From: a virus
Length of the DNA stretch: 64,000 nt
Virus record (IMG/VR): IMGVR_UViG_3300032291_003205
Location: 38,224-102,223 of that record
Strand: one strand, 5' to 3'
The translations under genes and the position numbers were made by a program. The notes beneath the pieces were generated by a model. The model worked only from the letters and a program-made list of their open reading frames with translations, was not told where the DNA came from and did no database searches. This document shows, piece by piece, positions 32,233 to 34,156 of the stretch (its first letter is position 1; each line of letters begins with the position of its first letter).

Positions 32233-32317
32233 GCTGTTGTGGTGGAATGGTAGACACGAAGGACTTAAAATCCTTTGGGACGTAAGTCTCGTGCCGGTTC
32301 GAGTCCGGCCAGCAGTA
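32233..32317 (+). tRNA. tRNA-Leu(TAA)
   Basis: Cloverleaf; AAGGA-CTTAAAA-TCCTT; long variable arm; GGTTCGAGTCC. Confidence 0.93.
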
Positions 32318-32348
32318 CAAAAAATAAAAAATATATATTTATAAACAC

Positions 32349-32540
32349 ATGAAAAAATTATTTATTATCGCCGCTTTAGTTACTTTGGCTTCTTGTTCAA
32401 ACGAAACTACCTCTACTTCTACAGACACAACTTGTGTTGATTCAACCTGTTGTGATTCTTTAAATACAGATTCTCTTATTCAAAGTACAGAAGCACATGC
32501 TGATTCTTTGCATACAGAAATCCAAGAGTTGAAGAAATAA
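32349..32540 (+). CDS. Small lipoprotein
   Basis: MKKLFIIAALVTLASC lipobox; Thr/Asp-rich. Confidence 0.75.
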   Translation: MKKLFIIAALVTLASCSNETTSTSTDTTCVDSTCCDSLNTDSLIQSTEAHADSLHTEIQELKK

Positions 32541-32547
32541 TCTTCTT

Positions 32548-32620
32548 GCCCCCTTAGCTCAGTTGGTAGAGCTTCTGATTTGTAATCAGATGGTCGGCGG
32601 TTCGAGTCCGTCAGGTGGCT
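32548..32620 (+). tRNA. tRNA-Thr(TGT)
   Basis: TCTGA-TTTGTAA-TCAGA; one C-U acceptor mismatch. Confidence 0.9.
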
Positions 32621-32624
32621 CAAA

Positions 32625-32720
32625 GGTGGTAGTTAGACGAAAATGAAATTCCTGCTGTGATGTTAACTTAATCAGCATATTCAGAAGTAGAAATGAGTAA
32701 TCGCAAATTACTCGCCACCA
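32625..32720 (+). ncRNA. Unknown structured RNA with tRNA-like ends
   Basis: GGTGGT/GCCACC closing stem; GAGTAAT-CGCAA-ATTACTC hairpin; ends ACCA. Confidence 0.5.
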
Positions 32721-32725
32721 TATAG

Positions 32726-32796
32726 GGCGGATTAGTGTAATGGTAACACATAAGGCTCATAACCTTAAATTGGCAGTTCGAGTCTGTCGTCCGCAA
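32726..32796 (+). tRNA. tRNA-Met(CAT), initiator-like
   Basis: TAAGG-CTCATAA-CCTTA; 1:72 mismatch. Confidence 0.85.
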
Positions 32797-32797
32797 C

Positions 32798-32924
32798 AAA
32801 AGAAAAGTAGTGAAGCTGTAATTGAGAGGTAGAGTGTTTTAAATACTGAAAAAGGGTTAATAGTAGGTAGGCGTCACTCATTGCACTCAATCAGAAACCC
32901 TGAAAGACCCGAAGCTTTTCTTTT
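32798..32924 (+). ncRNA. Unknown pseudoknotted RNA
   Basis: 11-bp closing stem, internal stems and AGGGTT/AACCCT pairing. Confidence 0.5.
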
Positions 32925-32930
32925 AAAAAA

Positions 32931-33014
32931 TCCGGTGTTCGTGAGGGGGAAGCAACAAGAACGAAAACACTCTCATTAAATATGTTGCATGTGTAAGTAA
33001 CGGAACCTTACACA
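32931..33014 (+). ncRNA. Pseudoknot + hairpin RNA (copy A)
   Basis: GTGAGGG/CTCTCAT, GCAACA/TGTTGC, TGTGTAAG/CTTACACA. Confidence 0.5.
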
Positions 33015-33018
33015 AATT

Positions 33019-33105
33019 GGAAGTGATCCGGATGGATGAGGAGCTGCTCTTGAAAAGCAGTAGTACGTGATGAGCGTATTGTGAGTTCGAGTCTCACCGC
33101 TTCCG
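33019..33105 (+). tRNA. tRNA-Ser(TGA), atypical D arm
   Basis: CTGCT-CTTGAAA-AGCAG; long variable arm; G discriminator. Confidence 0.88.
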
Positions 33106-33116
33106 CAAACCTTAAA

Positions 33117-33213
33117 ACCGATTCGGGTTCGTGAACAAGGGAGGCCTGTTCTTCTCGTGCAAGAAAGAAATCACGTTAAATCTCCCCACGCTAGGTGGCA
33201 GCGGTGACCTAGC
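33117..33213 (+). ncRNA. Pseudoknot + hairpin RNA (copy B)
   Basis: CGTGA/TCACG, GGGAG/CTCCC, GCTAGGT/ACCTAGC. Confidence 0.5.
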
Positions 33214-33218
33214 ATTAT

Positions 33219-33289
33219 TACCTCCTCGTCTAATGGCAGGACAAGTGGTTTTGGTCCACTTAATCGAGGTTCGAATCCTTGGGAGGTAA
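33219..33289 (+). tRNA. tRNA-Gln(TTG)
   Basis: AGTGG-TTTTGGT-CCACT; acceptor TACCTCC/GGAGGTA. Confidence 0.9.
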
Positions 33290-33301
33290 CTAAAATTTAA
33301 T

Positions 33302-33332
33302 TTGGAATTATAAAATAAAAATATTATATTGA
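33302..33332 (+). promoter_or_regulatory. Promoter TTG-N20-TATATTGA (ATG 4 nt downstream)
   Basis: Repeated motif. Confidence 0.65.
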
Positions 33333-33336
33333 TACT

Positions 33337-33771
33337 ATGAATTTGACAAAAGCACTTAAGCACAAGAAAAAGCTTGTAAAACAAGCTGATGAATTTTATT
33401 CTCGTTTTTCTAATTACAATTCTTTTGAAGTTGGAACAACCCCATCTTATAACCCAGAAGAAATGTTTGAAGGATGGTTGAAAAAAACTGATGAGTTAGT
33501 TAGTTTAAAAGCAAAAATTCATCAAGCAAATGTACCCATTGCTGAAAAGATTTTTCGATTAGGGGAAATTAAAAATATAATTTCTCGTATGCGTGGACTT
33601 GACACTAAAGAAGGAAAAGTTCGTGATCGTTATTCAGTTAATGATAATGCTATTGAATATACATCATATGTAAATTTAGTTAGTAAAGATCTTCAAATTA
33701 AAAATTATGAAGAGGAATTAGAAAAACTTCAAGAAGAAATTGAGGCATTTAATGCTATCACAAAGATATAA
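33337..33771 (+). CDS. Coiled-coil protein, DIP1984 / DUF6847-like
   Basis: MNLTKAL...LKAKIHQAN...LQEEIEAFNAITKI matches the family pattern as recalled. Confidence 0.6.
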   Translation: MNLTKALKHKKKLVKQADEFYSRFSNYNSFEVGTTPSYNPEEMFEGWLKKTDELVSLKAKIHQANVPIAEKIFRLGEIKNIISRMRGLDTKEGKVRDRYSVNDNAIEYTSYVNLVSKDLQIKNYEEELEKLQEEIEAFNAITKI

Positions 33772-33958
33772 CCAATTTAAAGAGTAAAGGTGAATTAGTA
33801 GTGCTTAATTCTTCGGAATTATCAACCCTACAGATAAACATGATGCTTTGATACTGATATTGACGAATGCCTTAAGATTCAAAATTTAAAATTCAATATT
33901 AGGAAAACTCAAATCTCAAATCTTTTCAACGAAAATTTAACTTTACTCTACTTTGGTT
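33770..33958 (+). ncRNA. Unknown ncRNA with cUUCGg hairpin and periodic repeats
   Basis: Long closing stem; TAATTC-TTCG-GAATTA; TGAY and TCAA repeat tracts. Confidence 0.65.
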
Positions 33959-33963
33959 TGTTT

Positions 33964-34038
33964 GCTCGGTTCATCTATCGGTTAGGATGCCAGGTTTTCA
34001 TCCTGGAAAGAGGGGTTCGACTCCCCTACCGAGTACCA
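33964..34038 (+). tRNA. tRNA-Glu(TTC)
   Basis: CCAGG-TTTTCAT-CCTGG; encoded CCA. Confidence 0.93.
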
Positions 34039-34040
34039 TT

Positions 34041-34114
34041 GGACCCTTAGCTCAGATGGTCAGAGCGTCAGACTCATAATCTGGGGGTCGTAGGTTCAAA
34101 CCCTACAGGGTCCA
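34041..34114 (+). tRNA. tRNA-CAT (Ile2 or elongator Met)
   Basis: TCAGA-CTCATAA-TCTGG; acceptor GGACCCT/AGGGTCC. Confidence 0.9.
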
Positions 34115-34156
34115 CAAAATCGTTTTTATATTTTTTTCATATTTATAATTGTTCAT

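Follow-up and report, generated by a model that had tools for sequence, protein, structure and literature searches.

Which described systems pair a small protein with an RNA built from short, regularly spaced units? In the type III toxin-antitoxin systems (ToxIN, CptIN and TenpIN), a protein gene has a repeat-bearing RNA as its partner, and in the Bacillus TRAP/trp leader and HutP/hut leader systems an oligomeric protein reads regularly spaced triplet or tetramer motifs on RNA. In VIPR, the protomers of a RAMP protein, Vipr, line up along the repeats of a partner RNA, the vrRNA (bioRxiv 10.64898/2026.04.26.720920, 10.64898/2026.04.26.720927). Vipr possesses an RRM core, a G-loop and a thumb, and the vrRNA consists of 9-16 tandem 5-nt YNNGG units, in which the GGY is conserved and the NN is hypervariable (bioRxiv 10.64898/2026.04.26.720920, 10.64898/2026.04.26.720927). 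A period of 7 nt has been described for the "beads-on-a-string" cluster #156,623, where fixed tetramers alternate with variable 3-mers and are then followed by a reverse-complement array; the cluster is mostly from Patescibacteriota, and no co-localised protein was reported for it (bioRxiv 10.64898/2026.10.21.760802).

The locus analysed here belongs to a large uncultured phage, putatively T4-like and of Bacteroidota type, known from a 102-kb IMG/VR virus record with an estimated completeness of 62%, and positions refer to the window, the whole stretch of 64,000 nt of that record that was analysed. A gene for a 144-aa protein and an RNA element that begins within its stop codon together form a module of about 660 bp, which sits between tRNA-Gln and tRNA-Glu among seven tRNA genes called by ARAGORN within 32233-34115 (Table 1). 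The whole record contains one DUF6847 gene and one such RNA element. The original prediction had placed the gene inside the tRNA cluster and had listed stem, hairpin and repeat features behind it, all of which were recovered.

Table 1. Positions of the module, its parts and its immediate neighbours in the 64,000-nt window
Feature	Position	Strand	Details or source
tRNA-Gln	33219-33290		upstream neighbour of the 144-aa gene
Predicted promoter	33302-33330	+	TTGG 33302-33305, N19, TATATT 33325-33330, N6, ATG 33337
Six TTGG-N19-TATATT-N6-ATG copies	14601, 15487, 24289, 32024, 33325, 60832	+	pattern scan of the window
DIP1984/DUF6847-fold gene (by model), 144 aa	33337-33771	+	Pfam, NCBIfam, AF2, Foldseek
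Whole conserved RNA element, about 190 nt	33770-33958	+	first base within the stop codon, last base 5 nt short of tRNA-Glu; R1 193 bits
P1 5' strand	33770-33802	+	AACCAA 33770-33775 (pairs with TTGGTT 33953-33958), main stem 33781-33794 (pairs with 33936-33949), loop UUAGUA 33795-33800, inner pairs 33801-33802
Variable hairpin P2	33806-33821	+	UAAUUC-UUCG-GAAUUA (cUUCGg); hairpin at the same position in relatives
NNGA ("TGAY") tract: AUGA, UUGA, CUGA, UUGA	33840, 33848, 33854, 33860 (33840-33863)	+	spacings 8, 6, 6 nt
Heptad tract I: four UYAA units	33872, 33879, 33886, 33893 (33872-33899)	+	exact 7-nt period
Heptad tract II: two UCAAAUC units, then conserved CUUUUCAACGAA	33909, 33916 (33909-33922)	+
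P1 3' strand	33929-33958	+	inner pairs 33929-33930, loop GAAAA 33931-33935, main stem 33936-33949, TTGGTT 33953-33958
tRNA-Glu(UUC)	33964-34038	+	called by both ARAGORN and Rfam; starts 5 nt past the end of the RNA element

Several other features of the tRNA cluster can be recorded here. Two spacers, one of 221 nt between tRNA-Met and tRNA-Ser (32798-33018) and one of 112 nt between tRNA-Ser and tRNA-Gln (33107-33218), had been separately flagged at first reading as candidate RNAs; neither contains a notable ORF or an Rfam match at E <= 1. The tRNA-Ser(UGA) between them (33019-33106, 88 nt) is an ARAGORN call on which the Rfam tRNA model is silent at E <= 1, and a similar tRNA-Ser of about 86 nt recurs in related loci. 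Rfam also gives a match below threshold on the minus strand at 34041-34115, to the Plastid-ycf2 5'UTR (45 bits; gathering score 65.7); it lies antisense to a tRNA-Met and is most likely an artefact of that tRNA.

How does the module compare with the described systems? Like VIPR, it is a minimal phage-borne module in which a small protein accompanies an RNA of short, evenly spaced units beside a structured part. Unlike Vipr, the protein is predicted to consist of three helices and one hairpin and has no RAMP among its structural matches, the RNA has 4+2 conserved UYAA units of 7 nt, and there is no vap-like accessory gene. The locus is not a VIPR member, and VIPR may instead be regarded as its nearest analogue in logic. 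TRAP and HutP have folds unrelated to that of the 144-aa protein, and theirs are 5' attenuation leaders, whereas the element here is a closed, stem-capped 3' element for which protein binding is proposed. In type III toxin-antitoxin loci, repeats of roughly 34-36 nt lie upstream of the protein gene with a terminator between the two, whereas here the repeats are of 7 nt and lie 3' of the gene in an element that runs from its stop codon; nor is the protein an endoribonuclease of the ToxN/AbiQ type, being modelled as a helical bundle and matched by no PADLOC or PHROGs model. A possible resemblance to cluster #156,623 is that an NNGA/UUGA tract here precedes the UYAA units, with UCAA complementing UUGA.

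The protein had been assigned to the DIP1984 family in the original prediction, and the assignment is correct at the level of the fold. Its Pfam PF20935 (DUF6847) score of 27.4 bits is 0.4 bit over the cut-off of 27, and its NCBIfam NF038048 (DIP1984_fam) score of 42.9 bits is under the cut-off of 70. The AlphaFold2 model, made from a 71-sequence alignment, has a pLDDT of 97 and exhibits helices at residues 3-27, 40-86 and 114-141, with a β-hairpin at 93-108. Comparison of this model with the PDB by Foldseek returned chains C and A of 3KDQ, a Corynebacterium diphtheriae protein of unknown function, at the top (TM 0.74-0.76, probability 1.00); this was the only significant structural match, the next having an E-value of 0.75. 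A PDB sequence search with the single protein found no match, and a profile search reached 3KDQ at E = 0.14 only, with a full-length alignment. What the protein has in common with DIP1984/3KDQ is the length class and the fold, a helical bundle of about 150 aa with a β-hairpin, whereas sequence identity is just 16-19% and the NCBIfam cut-off is missed. Judged by its modelled structure, the 144-aa protein is a DIP1984/DUF6847-fold protein.

DUF6847 comprises 1525 clusters at 50% identity (E <= 0.001), and a literature search found no paper that ties it to an RNA and no known function for the family. Older plasmid annotations call the protein "septicolysin". On Acinetobacter plasmids, a member of the family is annotated merely as a hypothetical protein (PMC10889530). 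The 144-aa protein itself found no match among plasmids by tblastn, and its single match among named phages was an uncultured 462-kb phage record. Of 14 control genomes, those of E. coli, D. radiodurans, T. maritima and S. acidocaldarius have PF20935 matches, one of which is above the cut-off. A scan of cellular genome contigs returned a single sequence, a CorA-like transporter, which was a false positive.

Is the protein suited to reading a periodic RNA? Self-association, which the original prediction had supposed, is supported by modelling: a two-copy model gave a symmetric homodimer formed via helix 2, with a score of 0.80 against 0.02 for the best of 3 controls, although the relative 3KDQ was solved with 4 chains and the pass may come from the memory of the predictor. 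The dimer runs had 100% contact agreement and a partner pLDDT of at least 91. In calibration, the mark was reached by 20 of 30 one-chain-pair structures and 1 of 23 single-chain structures, counts that hold only roughly here because the dimer was modelled from an alignment made for this analysis. The protein is near neutral, with a pI of 7.8 (the family median is 6.9), and is basic only in helix 1 (+5); no known RNA-binding domain was found in it. Several invariant residues (N28, S29 and K58) are part of the predicted interface between the two subunits and may therefore be conserved for reasons other than contact with RNA.

The RNA element is under structural selection. The covariance model R1 matches it with an E-value of about 1e-34, and it is the sole strong match in the 102-kb record. 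Rfam 15 has no match to 33772-33958 at E <= 1, and across nine diverse homologous loci the only Rfam matches are tRNAs. Folded as a single sequence, the element is only weakly better than its shuffles (z = -1.84), which was not taken as evidence; the case comes from comparison. All ten close viral loci keep the downstream 190 nt, even a locus whose protein is 50% identical and which has no tRNAs around it, and RNAalifold on 18 diverse copies predicted the long closing helix (P1), with 13 of 15 pairs changed on both sides while pairing is kept. In a 23-sequence alignment, which was fitted to the structure of the model and whose pair counts therefore lean toward that structure, 96.5% of P1 cells are paired compared with at most 57% in slid registers, 13 of 15 pairs show compensatory changes, and 0 of 500 shuffles reach any of five measures. 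The long stem that had been noticed straight after the stop codon is thus real and conserved. Its position is equally constant: the first 42 nt were scanned against the region 120-250 nt downstream in 58 distinct homologues whose sequences differ widely, and in 51 of them the best duplex started no more than 3 nt from the first base of the stop codon. Of the seven exceptions, three carry an inserted ORF. Within P1 there is a conserved UUAGUA/GAAAA internal loop flanked by covarying pairs, which by eye fits the AGUA/GAA consensus of loop E (sarcin-ricin) and which we take as a candidate loop E.

Inside the closing helix, a variable part and a conserved part can be discerned. The position of P2 is occupied by one or two hairpins of unrelated sequence in all 23 of the closer homologues, with a mean z of -2.2 and 13 of the 23 below -2. 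The remaining interior is conserved in sequence, its majority fraction being 0.74-0.91 compared with 0.30 in the variable hairpin region; the GA dinucleotides of the NNGA tract occupy fixed alignment columns, and the changes found in the repeats among close relatives are mostly C/U within UYAA. The TGAY tract and the tract of about 7-nt period that had been picked out by reading are both real. Across 55 distinct homologues, T[CT]AA occurs on average 8.2 times per element compared with 4.4 in shuffles, and 33% of successive UYAA spacings are exactly 7 nt compared with 2.3% in shuffles, a 14-fold excess. UCAA is the reverse complement of UUGA, and the NNGA and UYAA tracts could pair as four 4-bp mini-helices, the form described for cluster #156,623. 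This register fits 81% of cells, compared with at most 54% when slid, but has 0 compensatory pairs and is level with the shuffles. Two further interior helices were considered and rejected, a GGAAA/UUUUC hairpin around heptad tract II and a UUGA/UCAR helix, neither of which shows covariation or exceeds shuffles; the interior candidates pair well because their columns are conserved. A hammerhead reading of CUGAUGC...CGAAA was likewise rejected, there being no Rfam match and no conserved core.

The RNA is strictly linked to the DUF6847 gene. The original prediction had proposed that the stem and repeats be sought downstream of homologues of the gene, and they are indeed there, co-inherited over wide divergence. 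The test set for R1 was 475 kb of sequence at 80 viral loci that had been picked by the protein alone, from 97% down to about 39% identity. Its 66 matches at E <= 1 are all 3' of the gene, no more than about 240 nt away and on the gene's strand, with none elsewhere; the loci missed by R1 have the same stem and heptads by eye. The uncultured 462-kb phage, whose protein is 33% identical, also has the same stem and heptads, and these are R1's best match in that locus. In the opposite direction, 2.9 million viral contigs were searched with a motif of the RNA alone, which led to 25 loci. All 24 assessable contigs carry the gene, in full and 128-167 nt upstream in 22 and as its last 24 codons at the edge of the locus in 2, and the remaining contig ends at the stop codon.

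While gene and RNA stay together, their surroundings change, the flanking tRNAs of the module being Glu, Met, Trp, Leu or none. In the closer clade, where the module sits in tRNA clusters, a tRNA starts a few nucleotides after P1 in 27 of 79 related loci, and in the distant clade a GC-rich terminator-like hairpin with a T-run is found at that spot in 35 of the 79. The 3' end of the RNA thus abuts a tRNA or a terminator, and both devices would place that end at the foot of the helix. The loci L038, L042 and L047 have retained the RNA although a small ORF now separates it from the gene. The inserted ORF (2936-3130 in L038) is Cys-rich and zinc-ribbon-like, and its stop codon is the TAG at the base of the closing helix of the RNA. 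Three other loci (L021, L022 and L027) have an extra 60-160 nt between the RNA and the next tRNA, about 200-260 nt past the gene; the extra stretch begins with TTAGTCAGGTGGCGGAA and is tRNA-like at its start, and ARAGORN makes no call there.

At its 5' end the module appears to have a promoter of its own. The form TTGG-N19-TATATT-N6-ATG occurs six times in the window, always on the plus strand, and every one of the six ATG codons opens an ORF, of 63-309 aa. The bare count of TATATT-N6-ATG in the window is not significant (6 seen, 3.2 expected); it is because the six plus-strand copies share the TTGG distance and open ORFs that we regard the form as a recurrent promoter and the leaderless start as a fair prediction. 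The mRNA of the 144-aa gene is accordingly predicted to be leaderless, and the dedicated promoter and leaderless start put forward at the outset are borne out as a prediction.

What might explain why a DUF6847 gene is always followed by this RNA? We lean toward the view that the two are halves of one protein-RNA particle, in which dimers of the protein would occupy the periodic interior of the RNA. Gene and RNA would be co-transcribed from the gene's own promoter as the predicted leaderless mRNA, and the RNA would fold after the ribosome leaves the stop codon, into the long closing helix that begins at that codon, the loop-E-like internal loop, the one variable hairpin and the conserved interior. 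Its 3' end would be released by RNase P at the adjoining tRNA-Glu, or formed by the terminator in other phages. Dimers would then bind the interior, in which the NNGA tract is followed by a UYAA every 7 nt, with the helix and hairpin serving as a cap or nucleation site, and the product would be a stable particle with a role in trans while the phage infects its host. The original prediction would seat successive subunits of the protein on the repeats. Structural selection and linkage are observed in the alignments and loci; the processing, binding, stoichiometry and downstream role of the module we infer.

The constant position of the RNA, on the gene's strand and 3' of it in every phage locus seen, with the stop codon inside P1, is also what would be expected of a cis-acting 3' UTR. 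The protein, or the terminating ribosome, could regulate the mRNA of the gene at the level of stability, processing or translation, or the helix could insulate the mRNA from the processing of the tRNAs, and a long stem at the 3' end of an mRNA is a common stabiliser. However, a stabiliser needs no conserved periodic interior of about 100 nt, and the RNA persists in the loci where an ORF has come between it and the gene. We consider a cis-acting role unlikely in comparison with a particle of protein and RNA.

Less probable still is a stable phage RNA that works independently, whether as a decoy, as a sponge or in the processing of the tRNA cluster; the protein would then not bind it, and co-transcription alone would account for the linkage. 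The obvious parallel is with rnaC and rnaD of T4, the species 1 and 2 RNAs, which are likewise stable and of unknown function, are encoded within the tRNA cluster of a large myovirus and owe their ends to tRNA processing, and a protein that is not basic overall would suit an arrangement of this kind. Unlike the element described here, rnaC and rnaD are without heptads and have no adjoining DUF6847 gene, and homology to them was rejected when R1, with its filters off, found no match to either on T4 70908-71171. Co-transcription also sits poorly with a linkage that survives to 33-39% protein identity and also holds away from tRNA clusters, at loci whose RNA is followed by a terminator, and with an RNA-only search that never found the motif without the gene among assessable viral contigs.

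Could the bases between the fixed tetramers specify a target? In phages, fixed short units alternating with about three other bases beside a structured handle recall the guide RNA of VIPR, and RNA-guided targeting through a noncontiguous repeat code can be imagined for the module. However, the bases between the units show no hypervariability: relatives share a nearly identical tract, which ranks with the best-conserved parts of the RNA. With just 4+2 units, a protein that is helical and not a RAMP, and neither an accessory nuclease nor a DNA-binding gene nearby, we regard such a guide as very improbable. Least probable of all is the "type III TA-like pair" of the original prediction, in which the RNA repeats would neutralise a toxic protein, for although a protein gene does adjoin a repeat-bearing RNA, the helical bundle is not a ToxN/AbiQ-type endoRNase, the repeats are of 7 nt and 3' of the gene rather than in an upstream array of about 36-nt units, no terminator separates the two, and PADLOC and the other toxin and defence models give no match.

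The reading in which protein and RNA form one particle can be extended from the locus to the family, more tentatively. DUF6847/DIP1984 proteins and their partner RNAs may constitute an unrecognised class of RNPs, widespread in phages, in which a helical-bundle dimer would read a periodic 7-nt code on a stem-capped RNA; the particle encoded here, made from within a tRNA cluster, might act on the nucleic acids of the host or of competitors, or on the translation apparatus. DUF6847/DIP1984 has had a crystal structure since 2009 and is a large family that lacks a function, and the linked RNA is the first concrete handle on it. The locus itself points to several particulars: the stop codon is taken up into the closing helix, the 3' end would be set by a tRNA or by a terminator, and the promoter is a dedicated one with a predicted leaderless start. 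At about 660 bp, the module is small enough for direct testing. The gene and the RNA probably form a protein-RNA particle that has not been described before, and if the pair is an RNP, the few repeat-reading systems, TRAP, Csr, VIPR and CRISPR, would be joined by one whose protein fold and RNA family are both new.
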